A program made the position numbers and the translations under genes. A model generated the notes under the pieces. The model did no database searches. It saw nothing but the letters and a program-made list of their open reading frames with translations, and had not been told where the DNA came from. This document shows positions 13,605-42,491 of a stretch of DNA of 64,000 bases, one piece after another. Each line of letters opens with the position of its first letter. Position 1 is the first letter of the stretch. The stretch is taken from positions 78,708 to 142,707 of the forward strand of contig JAQTST010000001.1 in assembly GCA_028711165.1 (NCBI GenBank), read 5' to 3'. This DNA comes from Candidatus Nanoarchaeia archaeon. Lineage in GTDB: Archaea > Nanobdellota > Nanobdellia > Pacearchaeales > GW2011-AR1.

Positions 13605-14024
13605 TTATCTAATTCCCAACCTCTCCAATTTATTCTGAACATGATTGAACAGCGTCGATGAAACAATCGGCTGATGTGTTCCTTCGTGAATTTGGTTATT
13701 GAATTTTATTTTTCCGATATAAGTAAAATTTTTTAGGATTTTTTTTAGTCCATTCACAGAAAGATTATGCTTTTCTGCCAGAGTTCTCAGACTTAAGTTA
13801 TTATTCAAAAACGCTTCGAATATTTCTTCAATTTCGCGAAAGTTTTGCGCAGGAATTAATTTGCCGTCGGAGATTTGATAGCCGAAAGGAGCACGCGACA
13901 TAAGATTTCCGTGCATTGCTTTTTCAGACATAGATTTTTTTCTTGTGATATGAATTGATTTTAATTTTTCAATTTCTTTTTTCAGTTCCTCATTTTCTTT
14001 TCTTAAATCTTCAAGCTCGCCCAT
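13605..14024 (-). CDS. Recombinase-domain protein lacking the serine-recombinase catalytic domain (coiled-coil N-terminus)
   Basis: ..APFGYQISDGKLIPAQNFREIEEIFEAFLNNNLSLRTLAEKHNLSVNGLKKILKNFTYIGKIKFNN..HQPIVSSTLFNHVQNKL aligns with the C-terminal halves of 15239..15859 and 15849..16613. There is no YSRVS-type catalytic motif. Confidence 0.65.
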   Translation of the reverse strand: MGELEDLRKENEELKKEIEKLKSIHITRKKSMSEKAMHGNLMSRAPFGYQISDGKLIPAQNFREIEEIFEAFLNNNLSLRTLAEKHNLSVNGLKKILKNFTYIGKIKFNNQIHEGTHQPIVSSTLFNHVQNKLERLGIR

Positions 14025-14128
14025 TCTTTTCTGAATGAAAAAGAAGTTTAATTATTTTCGGTTTGTAATTAGAGAAGTGTACAAAATGTTTAAATAGTAT
14101 TTCTATTTTTATTAACCATTCAATTAAT

Positions 14129-15235
14129 ATGAACGACAATTCTGCAAGTGTAGCCAAATCAGAGGATGAACCTCCCAATCCGGCGATAGAGCCTGGAGGT
14201 ATTGTCTCGGCTGATCAGGTTTCTGGCATTTCTAAATTAAACAAAGATAATTTGAAGAAAATTTTTGACAAATATCCTGTCAGAATTACAAATTATTATT
14301 TCTCGCTGATTAAAGAAAAAGACGACGGTGTTTACAAACAGTGCATTCCGTCGATGGAAGAAATTTCTGATTTGGGGGGGGAGGAAGATCCGCTAAATGA
14401 GGAACCCGAACACCAGGTAAGACAGGGGGTTCCGTCGCTGTTGACGCACAGATATCCCGACAGGGTTCTATTTAGAATTTCAAATTCATGTGCGATGTAT
14501 TGCCGATTCTGCACGAGGAAAAGAAAAGTTGGAGATGTAAATAAACAGCCAACCTGGAAAGAAATTGGAAAGGCTTTGTTGTACATTCAGGAGCATGGAG
14601 AAATCAGAGATGTTATTCTTTCGGGCGGAGATCCGCTGATGCTTCCTGACAAAACACTTGACAAAATTTTGGCAGCAGTTTATTTAATAATCTCTAAAAG
14701 AGAAAACGGTATTATAAGAATAGGGACGAGGATTCCCTGCGTTTTGCCTCAGAGGATTACCCAAGAATTGTGTGATGTTCTAAAAAAGTATCATCCTATT
14801 TATCTGAACACGCATTTTAATCATCCTAATGAAATAACTACTGAAAGCAAGAGAGCTTGCGGGATGCTGGCTGACGCGGGAATTCCTGTCGGAAATCAGA
14901 CTGTTCTTCTGAAGGGAGTCAATGATAATCCTGAAATTATGAAAGAACTTATGCAGAGACTGATTAGTATTCGAGTCAGGCCGTATTATATTTATCAGTG
15001 CGATCCTGTGAGGGGAGCGAACCATTTTAGGACAAGGGTTGAGAAGGGGTTAGAAATTTACAAAGCATTAAGGGGACACACTTCTGGGTTGTGTGTTCCT
15101 CATTTTGTAATCGACGCACCGGGCGGAGGAGGGAAAATTCCACTACTTCCAGAATATCTGCAGACAATTACCGACGAGAAAGTTGTAATGAAAAATTACG
15201 AAGAAAAAGAATTTGAATATATTCAAGCGGATTAG
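14129..15235 (+). CDS. Lysine 2,3-aminomutase family radical-SAM enzyme (KamA/EpmB-like)
   Basis: CAMYCRFCTRKRKVG (CxxxCxxC in the KamA context), GGDPLML and ..YYIYQCDPVRGANHFRT... It is visibly more G+C-rich than its neighbours. Confidence 0.8.
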   Translation: MNDNSASVAKSEDEPPNPAIEPGGIVSADQVSGISKLNKDNLKKIFDKYPVRITNYYFSLIKEKDDGVYKQCIPSMEEISDLGGEEDPLNEEPEHQVRQGVPSLLTHRYPDRVLFRISNSCAMYCRFCTRKRKVGDVNKQPTWKEIGKALLYIQEHGEIRDVILSGGDPLMLPDKTLDKILAAVYLIISKRENGIIRIGTRIPCVLPQRITQELCDVLKKYHPIYLNTHFNHPNEITTESKRACGMLADAGIPVGNQTVLLKGVNDNPEIMKELMQRLISIRVRPYYIYQCDPVRGANHFRTRVEKGLEIYKALRGHTSGLCVPHFVIDAPGGGGKIPLLPEYLQTITDEKVVMKNYEEKEFEYIQAD

Positions 15236-15238
15236 TGA

Positions 15239-15859
15239 TTAAACACTCAACTTATTCTGAACCTGTTCAAACAGCTGTTTGTCAATGATTGGCTCGTGCT
15301 GTCCGTCGCTTTCGTGGTTCGCAAATTTAACTTTTCCGAGATAAGTTGTGTTTTTTAGCAGTTTAATCAAACCTGACGTCGTTAGATTGTATTTTTTTGC
15401 TAACTGAGTCAGAGAGATATTTGAGTTGAGAAATTCTTCGAAAATGTTTTTTACTTTTGCAGATTCTTCATCATGTTTAATCAGCTGTTTGTTTAAAAGT
15501 TTGTAACCTTTTGGTGCTTTGGTTATATGCCTTCCTTTTTTGAAAGCAGTATCCATCCCAAGTTTTGTCTTTTTAGAAATTGAGTAATCTGATTTTCTGA
15601 AGGTGTCTAATAATTTGCTGTCTATTTTTTCAGACAAATATTTTTTGAATTCTTTTTCTGAATCAGGAGCATATTTGTGGCATATTGAACATAATGTTGA
15701 AAGATTTGATGATTCATTTAATCCATTGAATATCTTTGGGTTTATATGATGTACTTCAAGATTTTCTCCGCTCGGGTCTTCAAAACCACATTTCTGGCAT
15801 TTGAAACTGTCTCTTTCTAAAATTTTTCTGATTAATGGAAGAGGAAGATTATTCTTCAT
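15239..15859 (-). CDS. HNH endonuclease domain fused to a recombinase DNA-binding domain
   Basis: N-terminus CQKCGFEDPSGENLEVHHINPK..LSTLCSICHKY (HNH with CxxC pairs). C-terminus APKGYKLLNKQLIKHDEESAKVKNIFEEFLNSNISLTQLAKKYNLTTSGLIKLLKNTTYLGKVKF..HEPIIDKQLFEQVQNKL. Confidence 0.7.
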   Translation of the reverse strand: MKNNLPLPLIRKILERDSFKCQKCGFEDPSGENLEVHHINPKIFNGLNESSNLSTLCSICHKYAPDSEKEFKKYLSEKIDSKLLDTFRKSDYSISKKTKLGMDTAFKKGRHITKAPKGYKLLNKQLIKHDEESAKVKNIFEEFLNSNISLTQLAKKYNLTTSGLIKLLKNTTYLGKVKFANHESDGQHEPIIDKQLFEQVQNKLSV

Positions 15860-16613
15860 TTATTTTATTATTAGCCTGATTAAACAGCTGTTCGTCAATT
15901 ATTGGCGGCTGTTTACCATTGTACAACCCTCCTTTATATCTTATTTTCCCAATATAGATAGGGTTTTTGACTATTTGATAAAGCGCAGATGAAGAGAGAT
16001 TAAATTTATTGCATATATCTTTGTAATTAATTCCTGCAATCCACATTTCAAAAATTTCCCTGACTTTTTCTGAATTTTCTGGATGTTTGATTAGTTTTTT
16101 ATTTTGGTAAGTATAACCAAAAGGGGCGCGATATAATGCTTCCCCAAGATTTATTTTTCTGTCAAAGGATAATTGAACTCTTTCTTTCACCATTCCTCTT
16201 TCAAGCTGGGCAAAAACTCCAATAATTTGAAAAAATGCTTCTCCCATTGCAGATGTCGTGTCAATTTGTTCTGTTACAGAAGTAAAATTAATTCCCTTAG
16301 ATTTCAAGTCTTCCAGTATTGTAATCAAGTCTTTTAATTTTCTTGAGAACCTATCTATTTTGTAAACTAAGATTATATCAAATTTTTTTTCTTGCGCATC
16401 TCTGAGTAATAATTCTAAGGCGGGCCTGTCCAAGCTTCCTGCAGAGAATCCTGCATCTTTGTAAACTTTGAAAACTTCCCAACCTCTTGCTTTGCAAAAA
16501 GATTCACATTTATCTATCTGGGCATCGACACTTAAACCTTCTTTTGCCTGCTCTTCTGTTGAAACTCGAGAATATATTGCAACTCTCGGAGTTTTATTGT
16601 TCTCTTTTATCAT
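15849..16613 (-). CDS. Serine recombinase (resolvase catalytic domain + recombinase domain; no zinc-ribbon/coiled-coil tail)
   Basis: VAIYSRVSTEEQ (catalytic Ser context), ..LVYKIDRFSRK.., ..TSAMGEAFFQIIGVFAQLERGMVKERV.., then an APFGY..YIGKIRY.. recombinase module. Confidence 0.85.
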   Translation of the reverse strand: MIKENNKTPRVAIYSRVSTEEQAKEGLSVDAQIDKCESFCKARGWEVFKVYKDAGFSAGSLDRPALELLLRDAQEKKFDIILVYKIDRFSRKLKDLITILEDLKSKGINFTSVTEQIDTTSAMGEAFFQIIGVFAQLERGMVKERVQLSFDRKINLGEALYRAPFGYTYQNKKLIKHPENSEKVREIFEMWIAGINYKDICNKFNLSSSALYQIVKNPIYIGKIRYKGGLYNGKQPPIIDEQLFNQANNKINEE

Positions 16614-16746
16614 TTTCTTGTAAACTTAGGGGTTTTTCTTCCTGTAAGGGTTCCCTTCCTGCTATGATTTTATAACCTTATTGGAAAATAAGTATATAAA
16701 TATTGTGTTAAATAGAGGAAAAGATGAACTTTTCCCACAAATTTTT

Positions 16747-16827
16747 CGGAATAATTCTTTAGTGGCTGGCGAGGGTTGTTCACTGACGTACACTCGCTTT
16801 GCTCGTGCACTAAGGTTAACTTAGTTA
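16747..16827. promoter_or_regulatory. Operator-like inverted-repeat element, copy 1 (shared arms with 17594..17647)
   Basis: CGGAATAATTCTTTAGTG-[41 nt G+C-rich]-GTGCACTAAGGTTAACTTAGTTA. Arms TTAGTG/CACTAA, with a quasi-palindrome CTAAGGTTAACTTAG. Confidence 0.45.
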
Positions 16828-17133
16828 TTAAGAATGAGAAATATATTTTACAGGGTAAGTTTTTTCTTTTTCCGGATAAACAAAAAATATTTCATCTTTT
16901 ACTAAATCAGTCAATTTATTTTTGTTTGTTGGGAGTTGAACTATTCCCAAATCTTGATTAGTTTCGCTTGCTTCAGAGAACATGTAAGAAATTTCTGTTG
17001 GTCTATATCCCAATAGATGATATTGATTATCTGATTCAAATCTTCCTATAAACATTTCTGTTATCTCTTCTGACTCTGGAGGGTATTTTGTTTTAATAGC
17101 ATGATAACCATATGCAATATCTGGATGAACCAT
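16828..17133 (-). CDS. Hypothetical protein (101 aa)
   Basis: ATG-started ORF with no motif recognised. Confidence 0.4.
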   Translation of the reverse strand: MVHPDIAYGYHAIKTKYPPESEEITEMFIGRFESDNQYHLLGYRPTEISYMFSEASETNQDLGIVQLPTNKNKLTDLVKDEIFFVYPEKEKTYPVKYISHS

Positions 17134-17191
17134 AAAGAAAAATATAAGAATAATTATTTAAAGATTATTGTGATTTTTTGATAGTTGTATA

Positions 17192-17536
17192 CTAAGGTTT
17201 GCTTTGTGAATGGGCAAAATTTAATATTTTTATTAAACGTGATTTTTCTTTTTCTAGCTGATTTACTCTTTTTTCAGCATCTTCGAGATCATAACTTAAT
17301 TGGTCCTGTAAATTTCCTGGAGATAAATCATGATTATCATAGTCTAAACCACATTTTGGGCATTTAATTAGTACTTCATTGTATGGGCCAACATTAACTA
17401 GTCTTCTTGTTAAAAAGGTTTGATCTAATGGACATTTTATGTCTATTAATTTCTCATCTTCTTTCAAACAATATTCTTCAGATTTCCCGTCTAAATTTAT
17501 GAATTTTACGGTTTTTTCACTTCGATATTTTACCAT
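17192..17536 (-). CDS. Zinc-ribbon plus C-terminal coiled-coil protein (hypothetical)
   Basis: CPLDQ..(23)..CPKCG followed by ..LEDAEKRVNQLEKEKSRLIKIL.. Confidence 0.45.
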   Translation of the reverse strand: MVKYRSEKTVKFINLDGKSEEYCLKEDEKLIDIKCPLDQTFLTRRLVNVGPYNEVLIKCPKCGLDYDNHDLSPGNLQDQLSYDLEDAEKRVNQLEKEKSRLIKILNFAHSQSKP

Positions 17537-17593
17537 GAATGAAAAAAGAATTATTATTTTTAAAGATTATTATAATTATCGACGAGAAATTTC

Positions 17594-17647
17594 CGGAATA
17601 ACTCTTTAGTGCTTGGCACCAGTTGTGCACTAAGGTTAACTTAGTTA
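17594..17647. promoter_or_regulatory. Operator-like inverted-repeat element, copy 2
   Basis: CGGAATAACTCTTTAGTGC-TTGGCACCAGTTG-TGCACTAAGGTTAACTTAGTTA. It lies upstream (minus sense) of the 17192..17536 gene and its TATA-like CTTTAAAAATAA. Confidence 0.45.
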
Positions 17648-17655
17648 AAATAGAT

Positions 17656-17764
17656 AAACACCTGTTTAAACAGGCAAGCTTAATAGTAAACAGTTGTTTG
17701 CCTCTGTTTAATGCTGTTTTAAACAGGTGTTTTACAATTTTTTTGTGTTTAAACAGGTGTTTTT
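17656..17764. repeat. Iteron-like repeats with core AAACAGGTGTT / AAACACC half-sites, including the perfect 14-bp palindrome CCTGTTTAAACAGG
   Basis: AAACACCTGTTTAAACAGG (17656-17674), GTTTTAAACAGGTGTTTT (17716-17733) and GTGTTTAAACAGGTGTTTTT (17745-17764). Confidence 0.7.
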
Positions 17765-17859
17765 GAATAGAATAGGAAGAAGATTTTATTGAGCATAATT
17801 ATAGATGTTTGTCGTCGGAGAAACAAAACATTTTTAAACTATATTTTGTAAAATATATT

Positions 17860-18471
17860 ATGTTTGGCTGGTTTTCCGGAAGAAGAGAGATTGATAATAT
17901 AAAAGATGAAACAAAAAAAGGTTTTGATTCTGTAAAAAAAGATATTAGTTCGGTCAGTGGTTGGATTAAACACCTTGATTCTGAAAAAAATTTGCAGAAG
18001 AAAGAAATTGCTGAACTTAGAGAAGTTTTATCGTCGATAAAAAATGATGTTGAAGGATTGAAAAATGTAATTGCTGTGATGAATGAATTAAAAACAAACA
18101 GGGTGTTTAAAACACCAACACGTGTTTCTAAGAAACAAACAGGTGTTTATGCTGTTCAAACAGGTGTTCAAACAGGTGTTCAAACACCAAATTTAAGCCA
18201 ATTTTCAGTAACTGAAAGAGCAATTTTATGGATATTATTAAACAGTGATATGAAATTAAGTTATGATGATTTGGCAGCTATGTTGGGGAAAGAGAGATCT
18301 ACTATTAGAGGGCAAATTAATACAATAAAACAGAAAAGTGAGATAATTGAAGAAGAAGTAGAAAAGAATGGTAAAAAGAGAGTATTTATACCTGAAGAAA
18401 TCAAAGAAAAGATGTTAAAAAAGACAAAAGTGAGAGTTGGAAACAGTAAAAATAACAGAAAAGATGAATAA
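17860..18471 (+). CDS. Coiled-coil + (QTGV)n linker + winged-helix DNA-binding protein (hypothetical regulator or initiator)
   Basis: First ATG of track ORF 17809..18471. C-terminus ..FSVTERAILWILLNSDMKLSYDDLAAMLGKERSTIRGQINTIKQK.. is wHTH-like. Paralog of 18666..19373. Confidence 0.55.
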   Translation: MFGWFSGRREIDNIKDETKKGFDSVKKDISSVSGWIKHLDSEKNLQKKEIAELREVLSSIKNDVEGLKNVIAVMNELKTNRVFKTPTRVSKKQTGVYAVQTGVQTGVQTPNLSQFSVTERAILWILLNSDMKLSYDDLAAMLGKERSTIRGQINTIKQKSEIIEEEVEKNGKKRVFIPEEIKEKMLKKTKVRVGNSKNNRKDE

Positions 18472-18665
18472 AAGTCAATAAAATATTCCAAAGTGAGAGT
18501 TTTTGGAACTAAAAATAAATTAAAAAATTGAATCAAAGTGAGGATTAAATAGGAAATAAAAAAGGAGGAGTTAGATAAAAAAGAAAAAGGTAAAAATGTG
18601 TTTATACAGAGAAAAGAAAGAGTTAAGTTAATCGGTTAACCGAAAATGTAAGTATTTGAAATATT

Positions 18666-19373
18666 TTATAGAGATCTAAGCTGGAAAAGTGTAGGTAATG
18701 GTGCAATTTTCTTTAACTTTTCAGAAACAGAGAGTTGAATCATCTTATTATTTATTTTTGTTTTATCGACGGGAATTCCTTTTTTTATGAGCTTTCCAAC
18801 ATAATCCCTTATAGAACTCTCTGTCAAATTAAGCTTCAGGGAAATGCTCTTATAATCCGCATAACCAAACTCTTCTTCAATTTGATATATCGTCGAGAAT
18901 ACTAAAAATTCCTGATCTGTAATTCTCTTGAACTTATTCCTTATTTCTTTTTTCAAATTATCTAAAGAACTTAAAACCTCAATAGCATTATTAAAAGAGG
19001 CTTTTTCTGTTTGTTGGTTTGTCTGTTGGTTTGTCTGTTGGTTTGTCTGTCTGTCTGTTGGAACCCCTTCATTTCCAGTGGAAAAGGCTTGATTTTGCTC
19101 TTTTAGAGGCTTAAAAGGATAGTTATGTGTTGGAATATCTGTTGGATATGTTGGATTTTGGATATTATGTGCTGGGTTTTGTGTTGGGATTATTTCCTCT
19201 TTTTTAGAGGTTAAATCAGATAATTTAGAGAATAAATCTTTTAGATTTTTATCTATGTCAGCAAGCTTTTCTTTATTTTCATGCAAGAACTGATTTAATA
19301 AATTAACCTCGCTGTTTATAGAATCTATATCTTGTTTTACTTTTTGAAAAGCATTTTTAATTTGCTCATCCAT
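18666..19373 (-). CDS. Coiled-coil + (QTNQ)n linker + winged-helix DNA-binding protein (paralog)
   Basis: The N-terminal coiled coil is similar to the previous gene. It has a 12-nt tandem repeat at 19008..19062. C-terminus ..ITDQEFLVFSTIYQIEEEFGYADYKSISLKLNLTESSIRDYVGKLIKKGIP.. Confidence 0.55.
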   Translation of the reverse strand: MDEQIKNAFQKVKQDIDSINSEVNLLNQFLHENKEKLADIDKNLKDLFSKLSDLTSKKEEIIPTQNPAHNIQNPTYPTDIPTHNYPFKPLKEQNQAFSTGNEGVPTDRQTNQQTNQQTNQQTEKASFNNAIEVLSSLDNLKKEIRNKFKRITDQEFLVFSTIYQIEEEFGYADYKSISLKLNLTESSIRDYVGKLIKKGIPVDKTKINNKMIQLSVSEKLKKIAPLPTLFQLRSL

Positions 19374-19404
19374 CTTAACATAAATAAAAAGCCAGTATAA
19401 AAAA

Positions 19405-19716
19405 TTAAGTATAATTTAGAGAATTATTTTGATTCTGGAAAGAAGATTGATGTTTTTTATAAGCCTGATAAGCGCTGTCTGTGAGCTTCCATCTTGATCT
19501 TTTTAGGTAAGGAAAACCAGCAGGATTTTTTTTAATCTCAACTACCAGCTCTTTCTTTTTTAATTCAAGAAGGAGAGTTTTTACAAATTCTTCATCCCTG
19601 GCAATTTCAACAGCAATATTCAATGTAAATAATGCCTTGGGAGAAATAGAATAAAGATAAGCAAGAATCTGTTCGTATATTTTTTCCCTTTTTTGCCTGG
19701 AAATTTTCATATACAA
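19405..19716 (-). CDS. Small winged-helix protein (hypothetical)
   Basis: ..REKIYEQILAYLYSISPKALFTLNIAVEIARDEEFVKTLLLELKKKELVV.. has a wHTH-like pattern. Confidence 0.4.
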   Translation of the reverse strand: MYMKISRQKREKIYEQILAYLYSISPKALFTLNIAVEIARDEEFVKTLLLELKKKELVVEIKKNPAGFPYLKRSRWKLTDSAYQAYKKHQSSFQNQNNSLNYT

Positions 19717-19792
19717 AAGAATAGACTTGATTTTTTAAAAGTAATGATAATATAATCCCGTGTTTCTATATAAGAATAAATATTAAGAAAAA

Positions 19793-20224
19793 TTACTGGC
19801 TTTCTTTTTCTTCGGTTTTCTTTTGAGGACTTAAAGAAGGTAAAGGAATATGATAAGGCAATCCTAATTCTTCTTCTAATTCAAGAGCTTTTACGTTGGA
19901 TTTTTTAAGAATTAAGTTGAAAATAGATGTCCTGAAATCATCTGAAGTCTGCTTTTCTTTCCAGCCTTTTATAATATCTTTAGCCATTTTAGAATCAACA
20001 GAAAGAATAAAATTACCGGCAAAGTCAATTTTAGCAAGTTCAGGTTCAAATGATAAAGTATAAACAAAATCAACTTTTATTAACTCATCCTTGGTTTTTA
20101 GAAGTTCATTCTTTAAAATATCTATAGAAGAAATATCCATTTTTGTGTTAAATTTTATATTGTCTGCCCTGTCTTTGAATCTTTCAACACTTATTTTAGT
20201 AAAATTAAAATTTACAAGCTTCAT
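19793..20224 (-). CDS. Hypothetical protein (143 aa)
   Basis: ORF with ATG start and no motif recognised. Confidence 0.4.
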   Translation of the reverse strand: MKLVNFNFTKISVERFKDRADNIKFNTKMDISSIDILKNELLKTKDELIKVDFVYTLSFEPELAKIDFAGNFILSVDSKMAKDIIKGWKEKQTSDDFRTSIFNLILKKSNVKALELEEELGLPYHIPLPSLSPQKKTEEKESQ

Positions 20225-20386
20225 TTTATTTTAGAATAAAAGATGTTTTTAAATATTTATATTAAGAAGTTTATAGATTATAAAATTAAGAAGAAAAGTA
20301 AAAAATTGTTAGTAAAAAAATTTATTTGAAATATAAAATAAGTATAAAATATAGAATTATTTGAGGATTAAGATATCTTAATATTT

Positions 20387-20650
20387 CTAAACTAAATCTT
20401 CTTCGGAAACTATTACAAAATCACCGATGGCAATTATTGAATTGTAAGGAATTAAAAGCTCGTGGCTGCTTGTTCTTTCTAAATTAAGATTATTTGTATA
20501 AGGAGTAGGATCTTTAACTAAAAGATTAATTAATTCTCCGGATTTAGTCTCGAAAGTTATGTCTTTGACAAAACCTAATCTTTTTCCTTCTTTTGTTACA
20601 ATCATTTTTCCCATAAGAGAAGTATAAGTATTTTTAGTTCCTTGTTGCAT
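20387..20650 (-). CDS. PRC-barrel domain protein
   Basis: ..GKMIVTKEGKRLGFVKDITFETKSGELINLLV..LIPYNSIIAIGDFVIV.. has the PRC-barrel pattern. A second paralog lies at 41547..41825. Confidence 0.65.
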   Translation of the reverse strand: MQQGTKNTYTSLMGKMIVTKEGKRLGFVKDITFETKSGELINLLVKDPTPYTNNLNLERTSSHELLIPYNSIIAIGDFVIVSEEDLV

Positions 20651-20797
20651 AATGAGGTAAAGATAAAAATTATTTATAAACTTTTCTGTGAAAATAAATA
20701 GATTTAGCAGTATATAATAGAAATTATTAAAATTTAGAAAATTAGTAATAAATTAATTAAAAATAGAAAAGATTAAAGAAAATAAATAATAAGATAG

Positions 20798-21195
<398 letters not shown>

Positions 21196-21198
21196 GTT

Positions 21199-22398
21199 AT
21201 GAGTGAATTAGACAAAATATTTGAAGCTTTTGACAACAATGGGATTTTTAAGAATAAATCGATGCTGCAGCATAGCTATCAGCCTGAAGAAATTCTTCAC
21301 AGAAGCAAACAGATACAGCAAGTAGCTTTGATTTTAGCTCCGGTTTTAAGAGGAGAAAGGGCCAGTAATTTATTTCTTTATGGCAAAACAGGGACAGGGA
21401 AAACTCTTTCTATACAATATGTGAGAAATGAATTAATGAAAAGAGTGAAAAAAGATGCAGATTTTAATTTGAAGATAGAATATCTGAACTGCAAACTTAA
21501 GAAAGTTTCTGACACTGAATACAGAATTCTTGCAGAGTTGATTAAAAAATTTGGGGGAGAAATTCCTGCAACAGGTTTGCCGACTCAATCTGTTTATGAC
21601 AGGTTTATTGATATTATTGACGCTGAAAAACAAACAATTGTTCTTATCCTCGATGAAATCGACCAGACAACTAAAAAAATTTCTGATGATTTTCTTTATA
21701 ATCTTACAAGGTTAAATTCTGAACTTTCAAAATCTCAAATTTGTCTTGTTGGAATTAGCAATAATTTGACTTTTTTGGATGAACTTGATCCGAGAGTAAA
21801 AAGTTCTCTTTCCGAGGAAGAAATTGTCTTTGATCCTTATAATGCACTTCAACTGCAGGATATTTTAACTACAAGGGCGAAGGATGTTTTCAAGGATGAT
21901 GTAATGCAGGAAGGTGTTATTGCAAAATGCGCTGCTTTGGCTGCCAGAGAGCACGGCGACGCGAGGAGAGCTTTGGACTTGCTCAGAATTGCAGGAGAAC
22001 TTGCTGAGAGAGATAGTTCTAAAAAAATTTACCTGAAATATCTTGATGAAGCAAATGATAAAATAGAAAGAGACAAGATTCTTGATGTCATCAAATCTGA
22101 ACCTAAACAATTTCAGCTGGTTTTGAGTTCAATAATTCAATTGCTTGAGAAACAGCCTAATTATCATCTTTTTACAGGAGAAGTTTATAACTTTTACAGA
22201 GAACTTTGCCTGAAAAATAAACTTGAGATTTTGACTCAGAGAAGAGTCAGTGATATCATTCAGGAATTTGACATGCTTGGGATTATTACTGTTAATGTTA
22301 TTTCAAAAGGAAGGGGCGGAAGAATGAGAGAAATTAAACTTGCAATAAGCAAAGATATTATTCAGAAAGCGAAGGAAATTATTGCAGAATCTCTTTAA
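21199..22398 (+). CDS. cdc6: Orc1/Cdc6 replication initiator
   Basis: Walker A GKTGTGKT, Walker B ILDEID, sensor ..HGDARRALDLLR.. and a C-terminal winged helix. Confidence 0.95.
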   Translation: MSELDKIFEAFDNNGIFKNKSMLQHSYQPEEILHRSKQIQQVALILAPVLRGERASNLFLYGKTGTGKTLSIQYVRNELMKRVKKDADFNLKIEYLNCKLKKVSDTEYRILAELIKKFGGEIPATGLPTQSVYDRFIDIIDAEKQTIVLILDEIDQTTKKISDDFLYNLTRLNSELSKSQICLVGISNNLTFLDELDPRVKSSLSEEEIVFDPYNALQLQDILTTRAKDVFKDDVMQEGVIAKCAALAAREHGDARRALDLLRIAGELAERDSSKKIYLKYLDEANDKIERDKILDVIKSEPKQFQLVLSSIIQLLEKQPNYHLFTGEVYNFYRELCLKNKLEILTQRRVSDIIQEFDMLGIITVNVISKGRGGRMREIKLAISKDIIQKAKEIIAESL

Positions 22399-42438: not shown

Positions 42439-42491
42439 ATGACTGAAACAGAAGTTTCAGCACAAATACAAAACAGGTGTTTTGCATAATG
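42439..42491 (+). promoter_or_regulatory. Mini-ORF/hairpin coupling cassette, copy 3 (MTETEVSAQIQNRCFA*; possible earlier in-frame ATG at 42427)
   Basis: ATGACTGAAACAGAAGTTTCAGCACAAATACAAAAC-AGGT-GTTTTGCATAATG. Confidence 0.6.

Follow-up and report, generated by a model that had tools for sequence, protein, structure and literature searches.

The window, i.e., the 64,000-nt stretch of DNA analyzed here, carries two convergent genes, named gene C and gene D, together with several sets of short repeats (Table 1). An earlier note on this DNA had reported repeats upstream of gene C that recur in its linker codons, and the strings it quoted were found in place when the sequence was re-checked.

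According to AlphaFold2, the gene C product has a long helix over residues 4-77 and a winged helix over residues 117-185, joined by a disordered linker (79-110); the winged helix comprises helices at 117-128, 135-142, and 146-159 and two strands. The pLDDT is below 50 over residues 79-110, although the alignment is nowhere more invariant than here; the (QTGV)n stretch is thus no variable low-complexity linker. Foldseek matches the winged helix to PerR, MepR, MarR, and AbfR2 (E 3e-4 to 2e-3), and the modeled domain resembles a DNA-binding wHTH fold of the MarR/MepR/Lrs14 kind. In Pfam, the top match was HTH_11 with 21.9 bits, under the cut-off of 25; matches in NCBIfam stayed far under their cut-offs, and a PDB profile search with the C family alignment returned nothing significant. 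Beyond a generic HTH, no known initiator or Rep family was found in these three resources, and a literature search retrieved no published description of this protein family or of DPANN origin-proximal regulators.

Homologs of gene C number more than 2850, and the gene belongs to the core genes of Woese-/Pacearchaeota-type archaea. Its synteny is fixed in 80 of 80 loci; it is located approximately 3 kb from orc1/cdc6, with the gene order C-D-E-F-PRC-orc1-dp1 kept in 73-80 of the 80 loci of our synteny survey, and no relatives were found on the viral contigs searched. In view of this fixed chromosomal setting, the plasmid-type origin once considered for the locus is unlikely, and the same applies to a mobile-element origin of the gene itself.

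An alignment of 15 upstream regions revealed a conserved BRE/TATA-like promoter 21-39 nt before the ATG. Due to this short distance, the mRNA is presumably leaderless or nearly so, and the upstream boxes would lie outside the transcript.

Table 1. Genes, boxes, and further elements at the gene C locus and the adjacent origin region.
Feature	Position	Strand	Remarks
Inverted-repeat element ..TTAGTGC..GCACTAAGGTTAACTTAGT	17594..17647	+	conserved; distal edge of conserved upstream region
AAACACCTGTTTAAACAGG	17656-17674		contains perfect 14-nt palindrome CCTGTTTAAACAGG
Box U1, AAACAGGTGTTT, inverted	17656..17667	-	forms palindrome CCTGTTTAAACAGG (17661-17674) with adjoining bases
Box U2, AAACAGTTGTTT, degenerate	17688..17699	+	fourth upstream box; followed by half-site TGTTTAAT (17705-17712)
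Box U3, AAACAGGTGTTT	17721..17732	+	139 nt 5' of gene C ATG
Box U4, AAACAGGTGTTT	17751..17762	+	109 nt 5' of ATG, 30 nt past U3
Core promoter, AAACAAAACATTTTTAAA	17821..17838	+	BRE/TATA-like, conserved; ends 21 nt before ATG
Gene C	17860..18471	+	203 aa; N-terminal long helix, disordered linker, C-terminal winged helix
Intragenic box array	18094..18189	+	5-6 boxes; linker codons, residues 79-110
Intragenic box AAACAGGGTGTTT	18096-18108	+	one extra G
Intragenic box AACACGTGTTT	18117-18127	+	CG centre
Three exact AAACAGGTGTT	18137-18148, 18158-18169, 18170-18181	+	linker codons
Unit CTGTTCAAACAG	18152-18163	+	inside intragenic array
Partial box AAACACC	18182-18189	+	closes intragenic array
AAAGTGAG(A/G), second element	18335..18543	+	four same-strand copies, at 18335, 18427, 18490, 18535
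Gene D	18666..19373	-	235 aa; convergent with gene C and built alike (coiled coil, long linker, wHTH)
Repeat arm of gene D	19008..19059	-	adjoins ORB; (ACAG)n decaying into CAGACAAACCAA 12-mers; encodes TDRQTNQQTNQQTNQQT
ORB TTTTCCACTGGAAATGAAGGGGTTCC in gene D	19060..19085	-	canonical; codons F-S-T-G-N-E-G-V-P
oriC region	20798..21198		canonical; inverted ORB-like boxes flanking AT-rich DNA with (TAA)20
ORB-like box of oriC	20798-20827	-	
ORB-like box of oriC	21168-21198	+	abuts orc1/cdc6 ATG at 21199

Distribution of the boxes in the genome and in homologous loci

The box is confined to the gene C locus. Seven exact copies of AAACAGGTGTT exist in the 637-kb genome, six of which map within 525 bp (17657-18180), three 5' of gene C and three in its linker codons. 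Elsewhere in the genome, the box occurs as lone sites at 42471 and, as TGTTTAAACA, at about 288376, neither of them clustered. With at most one mismatch, the 11-mer is found 16 times in the window, compared to 1.45 +/- 1.3 in shuffles, so that chance does not nearly account for the clustering. One-mismatch copies AAACAGCTGTT at 15269 and 15882 lie inside recombinase genes and translate to (K/E)QLF close to the C-termini of the proteins; we take them as coincidence. Upstream, TTTAAACAGGTGTTTT is present twice, with boxes U3 and U4 as its cores, and their spacing of 30 nt was found again in seven homologous loci. The intragenic array translates to TNRVFKTPTRVSKKQTGVYAVQTGVQTGVQTP. Three units of CAAACAGGTGTT, previously described as tandem, all exist in it, but only two are strictly tandem, the first being situated 21 nt ahead.

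For the box survey, 78 loci related to gene C were scanned with the strict pattern AACA(GG/GC)TGTT. Over 450 nt upstream of the gene, its density is 3.59 per kb, as opposed to 0.084 per kb in flanks of about 7 kb, a 43-fold difference. At least one upstream box was identified in 62 of the 78 loci, every one between -100 and -350, with spacings of 30, 23, 41, and 56 nt seen repeatedly. The homologous arrays are also rich in (G)G(G/C)TGTTTAA half-sites. The upstream boxes have the centres GC (65), GG (48), and CC (2), the in-gene boxes GG (144) and CC (17). Upstream and intragenic arrays share one pool of GG, GC, and CC centres; strict covariation of the centre (GG or GC) between both arrays within one genome was not found. 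Copy number varies, and more distant families lack the upstream array and keep the intragenic array alone. As proposed before, the upstream repeats and the repeats coding for the linker represent the same DNA element, and homologs also embed the upstream repeat in their linker DNA; this relation is conserved and under selection at the nucleotide level.

The boxes lie nearly all in one orientation, as the excess of GG over CC in both arrays reveals, which would also fit a strand-specific reading of RNA or single-stranded DNA. If the constraint acted on RNA, the boxes would be parts of an mRNA structure, or they would be recognized by a small RNA or an RNA-binding factor that controls translation or stability. 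Along this line, the upstream array of this genome folds much better than shuffles (z = -4.7) and the in-gene array slightly better (z = -2.3), while the analogous element of gene D shows no such fold (z = +0.6). However, the strong upstream hairpin needs an inverted box like U1, and this CC orientation is rare, being common to just two of 126 homologous upstream boxes. The conserved promoter, moreover, would leave the upstream array untranscribed, and the interchangeability of GG, GC, and CC centres is expected of a near-palindromic duplex site rather than of a fixed hairpin. A Rfam scan of 16500-21300 gave no match, which likewise counts against a role in RNA. Altogether, we regard it as very improbable.

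Selection on nucleotides in the linker codons

Within the same genes, synonymous sites are frozen in the linker and free in the winged helix. The glutamines Q100, Q104, and Q108 are encoded by CAA in 232 of 232 cases, in contrast to Q152 of the winged helix (CAA 42, CAG 28). Linker threonine is ACA in about 94 %, GTA is never used for linker valine, and the variable linker residue is restricted to the codons GGT, GCT, and CCT, which give rise to the box centres GG, GC, and CC. Relative to background, codon entropy has a median of 0.31 at linker positions, compared to 0.87 at those of the winged helix (p = 5e-7). The box is furthermore read in two phases, as QT[GAP]V (168 times) and KQ[VL]F (44 times), and both occur together in 39 of 78 genes. 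Other families read the unit CTGTCCAAACAG as xVQT or LSKQ, and their linker valine is GTC even at 21 % genome GC.

Frozen codons and the two reading frames point to the linker peptide as a by-product of the DNA element. The box element is kept by selection on the nucleotides themselves, and the intragenic cluster is conserved as DNA, not as protein. This finding contradicts the view that an (xVQT)n peptide is selected, or that slippage maintains low complexity, with the likeness to the upstream DNA a coincidence or a remnant of duplication. It is true that Q and T recur with a four-residue period in both C and D, and that repeats can be homogenized within a genome. Yet the silent positions are frozen between genomes whose proteins are 67-90 % identical, the same DNA yields unrelated peptides in two frames, non-coding copies keep their position in 62 of 78 loci, and the peptide repeat of gene D is fully changed between families under a constant DNA layout. 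Selection on the peptide or its low complexity is thus extremely improbable.

Candidate readers of the boxes and the origin region

We consider the 12-bp box AAACAG(G/C)TGTTT to be probably a binding element for a protein on double-stranded DNA, with the gene C product as its likeliest binder and either autoregulation or an origin-proximal complex as its presumed role. This assignment to C is deduced from the location of the boxes, their uniqueness in the genome, and a switch of box type which accompanies a changed recognition helix. A distant clade carries the recognition helix VTVRRHIN in place of STIRGQIN. In this clade, AACA..TGTT boxes are missing, and the linker DNA contains two to five CGTTCAA instead, with related boxes at most 90 nt upstream in three of six loci. 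The switch of helix and box is essentially one evolutionary event. Since the box type changes together with the recognition helix of C, it points to C as the reader. Nevertheless, the boxes could instead be bound by D, by the small wHTH protein E103, or by some further factor.

In the mechanism we propose, the two arrays, whose copies are mostly in the same orientation, would act jointly: one 100-210 bp upstream of the presumed leaderless promoter, the other 235-330 bp inside the gene, where it codes for the disordered linker between coiled coil and winged helix. Through its coiled coil, C may dimerize or oligomerize and place its winged helices on the boxes, with AAACAGCTGTTT as the candidate site of a winged-helix dimer. 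Such a complex could bridge both arrays across the promoter and confer autoregulation by looping or as a roadblock. The peptide ..KQVF..KQTGVYAVQTGVQTGVQTP.. is whatever the array spells in the frame read, and the "floppy linker" of C is, judged from the sequence, most likely a translated docking array for C itself. The same site does occur both 5' of the promoter and within the transcribed region of gene C, as in autoregulatory arrays that include an auxiliary operator inside the gene. The promoter itself is free of upstream boxes, so that nothing points to simple steric repression, and the lack of an upstream array in distant families implies that looping between two arrays cannot be the ancestral mechanism.

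Further frozen motifs in gene C, AAAGTGAG and TTATCGTCGA, indicate that the locus is more complex than a simple operator. Of the four copies of AAAGTGAG(A/G), two fall among the 3' codons of gene C and the other two between C and D; over the 78 loci, this element was found 236 times on the plus strand and not once on the minus strand. The codons of K190-V191 are invariant (AAA GTG). As a promoter mark, TTATCGTCGA was dismissed: the genome contains 465 ATCGWCG, of which 429 fall in coding DNA, and no peak is seen before start codons. The inverted-repeat element that marks the distal limit of upstream conservation may be where the variable, recombinase-bearing flank attaches; CACTAAGGT is present within 600 nt upstream of the gene in 69 of 78 loci.

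Gene D contains a repeat of its own. The 12-nt repeat reported earlier for this gene is real (19008-19059, minus strand), with CAAACCAACAGA present twice exactly and in degenerate copies. The former description of C and D as paralogs is weak, as the HTH alone is aligned by hhalign (84 %); BLASTP of C against D found no similarity, and only profile-profile comparison recovers the shared domain. The repeat arm adjoins an ORB (TTTCCACTGGAAAT..GGGG) that fits the dyad TTCCA-N2-GGAA plus G-string, in agreement with the P. furiosus ORB1-3 sequences (PMC1904270) and with the ORB beside orc1 in this genome. A canonical ORB with a repeat arm was detected in the coding DNA of gene D in every family examined. 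The tetranucleotide unit of the arm varies by family, the layout is kept, and the peptide repeat reads TDRQ, TNKQ, SLTH, IHSF, or RTHA. A D-type gene of another family has one and the same module, an ORB plus five CAACAAT, both upstream and inside the linker codons. Private repeats thus differ between clades and, as anticipated, between gene C and its neighbor.

Because no second such locus exists in the genome and its distance to oriC is always about 3 kb, the proposed C complex may also contribute, along with D, whose linker DNA carries an ORB, to an origin-proximal nucleoprotein structure. One could go further and assume that the boxes are not an operator of gene C at all. They would then be read by another factor or by a multi-protein complex near the origin (D, E103, Orc1/Cdc6, and partners), and the C-D pair would serve as a cis scaffold, either centromere-like, membrane-tethering, or in replication control. 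Several observations are in line with such a scaffold: the uniqueness of the locus, its fixed distance to orc1/cdc6 and conserved gene order, the ORB and repeat arm of gene D, and the oriented AAAGTGAG motif which fills the C-D junction as a third element. In addition, the aromatic and basic N-terminus of C, MFGWFSGRR, might by its sequence resemble a membrane-targeting helix. There is also a precedent in the Thermococcales: an ORB3/mini-ORB cluster within dp1, the gene of the PolD small subunit, is bound by Cdc6/Orc1 in vivo in Pyrococcus and Thermococcus (Matsunaga et al. 2007, PMC1904270). The arrangement is that of our locus, with conserved boxes, here presumably protein-binding, that lie within genes and not more than a few kb from oriC. 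Gene D even shares an ORB inside coding DNA, although coupled to a lineage-specific microsatellite arm.

On the other hand, the box of gene C is unlike an ORB. The dyad TTCCA-N2-GGAA with G-string was not found in the gene C boxes (AAACAGSTGTTT), which, in contrast to the dp1 cluster, sit in the gene of their likely reader, and the box is absent from the oriC spacer. Neither ParB/Spo0J or ParA-type domains in C, D, E103, F143, and the PRC-barrel gene nor an SMC-loader domain in the gene cluster were found, and the box type switches with C's own recognition helix. We therefore consider a scaffold read by other factors unlikely. An assembly of both linker DNAs into an organizer, with Orc1/Cdc6 on the gene D ORB, D on the repeat arm, and C on its two arrays in one complex about 3 kb from oriC throughout the Woese-/Pacearchaeota, is quite unlikely. 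If it existed, it would couple replication initiation to the expression of C and D, or tether or segregate the origin region, and the N-terminus of C might attach the complex to the membrane.

Relation to known systems and significance

The closest layout is known from lambdoid phages, whose origin consists of iterons in the middle of gene O that are bound by the O protein and encode its inter-domain stretch, such that extra iterons add residues (PMC7466680). Gene C shares the short direct repeats in the middle of a gene for a DNA-binding protein, their position between two domains, and the effect of repeat number on residues, as in the homolog L075 with a fourth QTGV unit. In both, one DNA would encode the site and its reader, which for C is presumed. 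The array could hence be taken as a second origin, with iterons inside the gene of their own binder and C as an accessory or alternative initiator, and its vicinity to the chromosomal origin region would suit this idea. But C is a coiled coil with a winged helix and shows no similarity to known initiator or Rep proteins; binding and initiation by C would be putative. Gene C belongs to the chromosomal core of an archaeal class, has a second array upstream of its promoter, and lacks plasmid or viral relatives. The DNA past the array codes for the conserved winged helix and appears to offer no AT-rich unwinding region, and a canonical ORB-flanked AT-rich origin abuts orc1 at a distance of 2.6 kb. 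GC skew is uninformative, as its cumulative curve over the 623-kb contig rises monotonically with no origin signal. A lambda-type origin is thus very improbable.

Bacterial gene regulation offers a parallel of another kind. Auxiliary operators inside genes that act by DNA looping are exemplified by lac O2 in lacZ and gal OI in galE. Here as there, the same operator occurs upstream and inside the transcribed region, and an oligomer could bridge both and enclose the promoter. In contrast to lac and gal, the intragenic sites of gene C lie in the regulator's own gene and form arrays of five to six boxes that dictate an invariant peptide, and distant families are devoid of the upstream partner array.

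In Bacillus subtilis, parS is located inside spo0J/parB near oriC, and RacA and Noc are origin tethers. Gene C resembles the former in having a (near-)unique cluster of sites close to the origin and partly in the gene of the binder, as presumed for C. There is some reminder of RacA and Noc in its coiled coil and in the membrane helix that its N-terminus may form. ParB, ParA, MerR-type, and CTPase domains were not detected, and the likeness is one of layout only.

The invariant linker "protein motif" VQTGVQTGVQTP is a translated array of DNA sites and, as such, a clear natural case of dual-use DNA and a warning against reading function from conserved linker peptides. To our knowledge, nothing is known about gene regulation, origin organization, and chromosome segregation in these archaea. 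The boxes provide a testable handle on an uncharacterized DPANN core protein family of more than 2850 homologs, and recombinant protein and synthetic DNA suffice to test the predictions, so that the organism need not be cultured. Together with the Orc1 box in gene D, they suggest that the surroundings of oriC in these tiny genomes are packed with intragenic protein-docking sites.

Box arrays at gene C and their genomic setting

All strings quoted in the earlier note were found at its coordinates when the window sequence was re-checked, and the repeat observation at gene C is confirmed. At ≤1 mismatch, the window contains 16 matches to the core 11-mer AAACAGGTGTT versus 1.45 expected. Seven exact copies exist in the whole assembly (637 kb), six of them at this locus, where three lie upstream of gene C, one of these inverted, and three fall within its coding sequence; box copies elsewhere in the genome are isolated. 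The box has the form of a near-palindrome, AAACA-SS-TGTTT, and because TGTTTAAACA is itself palindromic, tandem copies give rise to many inverted repeats.

Positions of genes and sequence features around genes C and D (window coordinates)
Feature	Position	Strand	Location
Variable flank upstream of gene C	13605-17647		also upstream flanks of loci L002-L081
Inverted-repeat element (CACTAAGGTTAACTTAGT)	16747-16827; 17594-17647		bracketing a two-gene cassette
ATCG(A/T)CG	17576; 18028-18040; 18763; 18887
Six exact AAACAGGTGTT copies	within 17657-18180		upstream of gene C and in its codons
Gene C	17860-18471	+
AAAGTGAG(A/G), four copies, single orientation	18335-18543	+	3' codons of gene C and C-D spacer
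Gene D	18666-19373	-
Canonical Orc1/Cdc6 ORB (TTTTCCACTGGAAATGAAGGGGTTCC) with repeat tract	19008-19085	-	frozen D linker codons; also loci L002-L101
(TGTTT/TGTTTT)n tract beside left ORB; perfect (TAA)20 microsatellite	20836-20866; 20911-20969		oriC spacer

The genome is that of a small DPANN archaeon (637 kb, 35 % GC), with related records filed under Woesearchaeota, Pacearchaeota or Nanoarchaeota. Gene C has more than 2850 homologs. The order C (+), D (-), a 103-aa wHTH-like gene (-), a 143-aa gene (-), a PRC-barrel gene (-), orc1/cdc6 (+) and PolD small subunit (+) is kept in 73-80 of 80 loci from different species. Therefore, gene C is a chromosomal core gene, located 3.3 kb from orc1, and its assignment to a mobile element was rejected; a search of viral contigs yielded no relatives. 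In the AlphaFold2 model of the protein, residues 4-77 form a single long helix and residues 79-110 are disordered (pLDDT <50); the winged helix that follows (117-185) is similar to DNA-binding domains of the MarR, MepR, PerR and Lrs14 type. Neither curated families (at threshold) nor a PDB profile search (at significance) gave a match.

The sole variable part of this conserved origin block is the flank upstream of C, which carries serine recombinases in 41 of 80 loci. Its boundary is marked in 69 of 78 loci by the CACTAAGGTTAACTTAGT element, whose two copies in this genome flank their cassette in an arrangement like attL and attR.

The upstream array is conserved as well. Across 78 loci, the density of strict boxes AACANNTGTT is 3.59 per kb over the 450 nt preceding the start codon versus 0.084 per kb in about 7 kb of flanks; 62 loci have at least one, every box lies at -100 to -350, and the centres are GC (65), GG (48) or CC (2). 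In an alignment of 15 upstream regions, full boxes and (G)G(G/C)TGTTTAA half-sites form a conserved array, with a conserved BRE/TATA-like AAACAAAACATTTTTAAA on its 3' side that ends 21 nt before the ATG. Given this promoter position, the mRNA is probably leaderless and would not include the upstream array, which speaks against a role of the boxes at the RNA level. Such a role is unlikely on further grounds: this genome's strong hairpin (z = -4.7) needs the inverted box, which is missing in homologs, the fold of the in-gene array is only a little better than that of shuffled sequences (z = -2.3), and the corresponding element in gene D has no fold.

Other words recur at this locus. In the 78 loci, AAAGTGAG(A/G) occurs 236 times on the plus strand and not once on the minus strand within 500 nt, at 6 per kb versus 0.06 per kb elsewhere, and the codons AAA GTG of K190-V191 in gene C are invariant; these copies may serve as directional sites in DNA or as an RNA signal in the 3' UTR. 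The word ATCG(A/T)CG is about 9-fold over-represented genome-wide (465 observed versus 52 expected), mostly in coding DNA and without a link to promoters. One copy, TTATCGTCGATAA, is frozen within gene C (S58 codon TCG in 70 of 73), and another lies directly upstream of the BRE in many homologs.

Constraint on the linker codons of gene C

Among C proteins of 67-90 % identity elsewhere, the linker peptide VQT[G/A/P]VQT[G/A/P]VQTP is invariant, which is odd for a disordered linker. Within one and the same set of genes, synonymous sites are frozen in the linker but vary freely in the winged helix. Gln is CAA in 232 of 232 linker cases, compared with 42 CAA and 28 CAG at Q152; Thr is ACA in about 94 %, compared with 45 ACT and 30 ACA at T118; Val is never GTA, compared with 37 GTT and 26 GTA at V25. 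The variable residue is encoded almost exclusively by GGT, GCT or CCT, corresponding to the box centres GG, GC and CC, against a Gly background of 247 GGA and 205 GGT. Median codon entropy relative to background amounts to 0.31 in the linker versus 0.87 in the winged helix (p = 5e-7). In 78 genes the box is read in two phases, as Q-T-[G/A/P]-V (168 times) and as K-Q-[V/L]-F (44 times), and 39 genes contain both.

Selection on the peptide, selection on codon usage and homogenisation by slippage were each ruled out as the source of this codon and two-frame pattern, which selection on the nucleotide sequence can produce. The existence of a DNA-level element in the C linker and upstream of the gene is certain. 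The earlier note had suggested that, if the protein binds these repeats, their layout would suit autoregulation, a plasmid-type iteron origin or a partition site; this interpretation is partly supported, in that the DNA-level element stands, while binder and function are what we infer from it.

Gene D and distant relatives

C and D share their architecture and can be aligned in the helix-turn-helix only. The D linker core STGNEGVPTDRQTDRQT is conserved, and its codons, some of them rare, are frozen (TCC, GGA, GGG, GTT, CCA, ACA, GAC, AGA, CAG). As DNA it reads TTTCCA-NN-GGAAAT-NNN-GGGGT, then (ACAG)n; its first part is laid out like the ORB that adjoins the start codon of orc1 in these loci and also fits the P. 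furiosus ORB1-3 sequences (TTCATTTCCACTGGAA plus C/G-string). In the 78 loci, TTCCANNGGAA is found essentially only at these two sites. The idea that C and D carry different private repeats is thus borne out, the D repeat being the arm of an Orc1-type box. Of 20 distant D homologs (23-48 % identity), 19 retain the ORB, with a short repeat tract immediately behind it that is a tetranucleotide microsatellite in most cases. The repeat unit depends on the lineage (ACAG, CAAA, TCAC, ATTC, GCAC or AATC), and therefore the peptide repeat changes completely while the DNA layout is kept. In a D-type gene of a far family (L111; G063:C24), a module of ORB (GTTCCA..GGAAATAAAGGGGT) and five CAACAAT at a 10-nt period is present twice, about 110 nt upstream in non-coding DNA and 210-290 nt inside the gene in linker codons. 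The ORB inside gene D, the uniqueness of the locus in the genome and its fixed position beside oriC leave room for a rival, bolder reading, in which a larger origin-proximal complex would form at the C/D locus.

Of 401 sampled genomes of the phylum, 93 have a match, among them almost every genome of the same family and genomes of several other families at 33-45 % identity. In the latter, the linker again derives from a 12-nt unit, GTC CAA ACA GCT, with Val as GTC even at 21 % genome GC, and its second frame is CTG TCC AAA CAG (L-S-K-Q). An integrase gene (XerC/D-like) lies directly upstream, adjoining the promoter, and no upstream array was seen in these families; this makes the intragenic array the older feature and the more constant one.

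A distant clade (L102-L108; genomes G184, G254, G362, G253, G292, G231) has the same protein architecture, with the recognition helix VTVRRHIN versus STIRGQIN. Here the AACA..TGTT box is absent; the linker DNA carries two to five CGTTCAA units, read in three phases and including the palindromes GAACGTTC and TTCATGAA. In 3 of 6 loci there are also related boxes (TTGAACG, CATTCAA) at ≤90 nt upstream, in some loci immediately before the promoter. This switch of box type together with the reader head, essentially one evolutionary event, is the best hint at hand that a given protein may read its own linker DNA. Another coiled-coil/wHTH relative (L112; G110:C27) has five AAGGACA in its linker DNA at a period of about 11 nt and no upstream copies.

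Precedents and possible role of the boxes

The intragenic auxiliary operators lac O2 and gal OI and the parS site within spo0J are analogous to the gene C arrays. The closest precedent in layout comes from lambdoid phages, whose origin occupies the middle of gene O and whose extra iterons lengthen the O protein by additional residues (PMC7466680), and the closest archaeal one is the ORB cluster within dp1 of Thermococcales, to which Cdc6/Orc1 binds in vivo (PMC1904270). A second origin of the lambda type at the intragenic array is unlikely, as an initiator signature is lacking and no unwinding region is evident. Gene C differs from these precedents in its uncharacterised protein family, its organism group and its paired arrays, and in that the sites demonstrably dictate an invariant peptide; no published description of this arrangement was found in the literature.

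On the best-supported reading, the boxes would be docking sites in duplex DNA, and the linker peptide their by-product. Their most likely reader would be C itself, in the form of a coiled-coil dimer or oligomer. The arrays lie at about -150 and +290, so that a bridge between them would enclose the promoter and may bring about autoregulation by looping; for families with the inner array only, a roadblock would be the simpler option.
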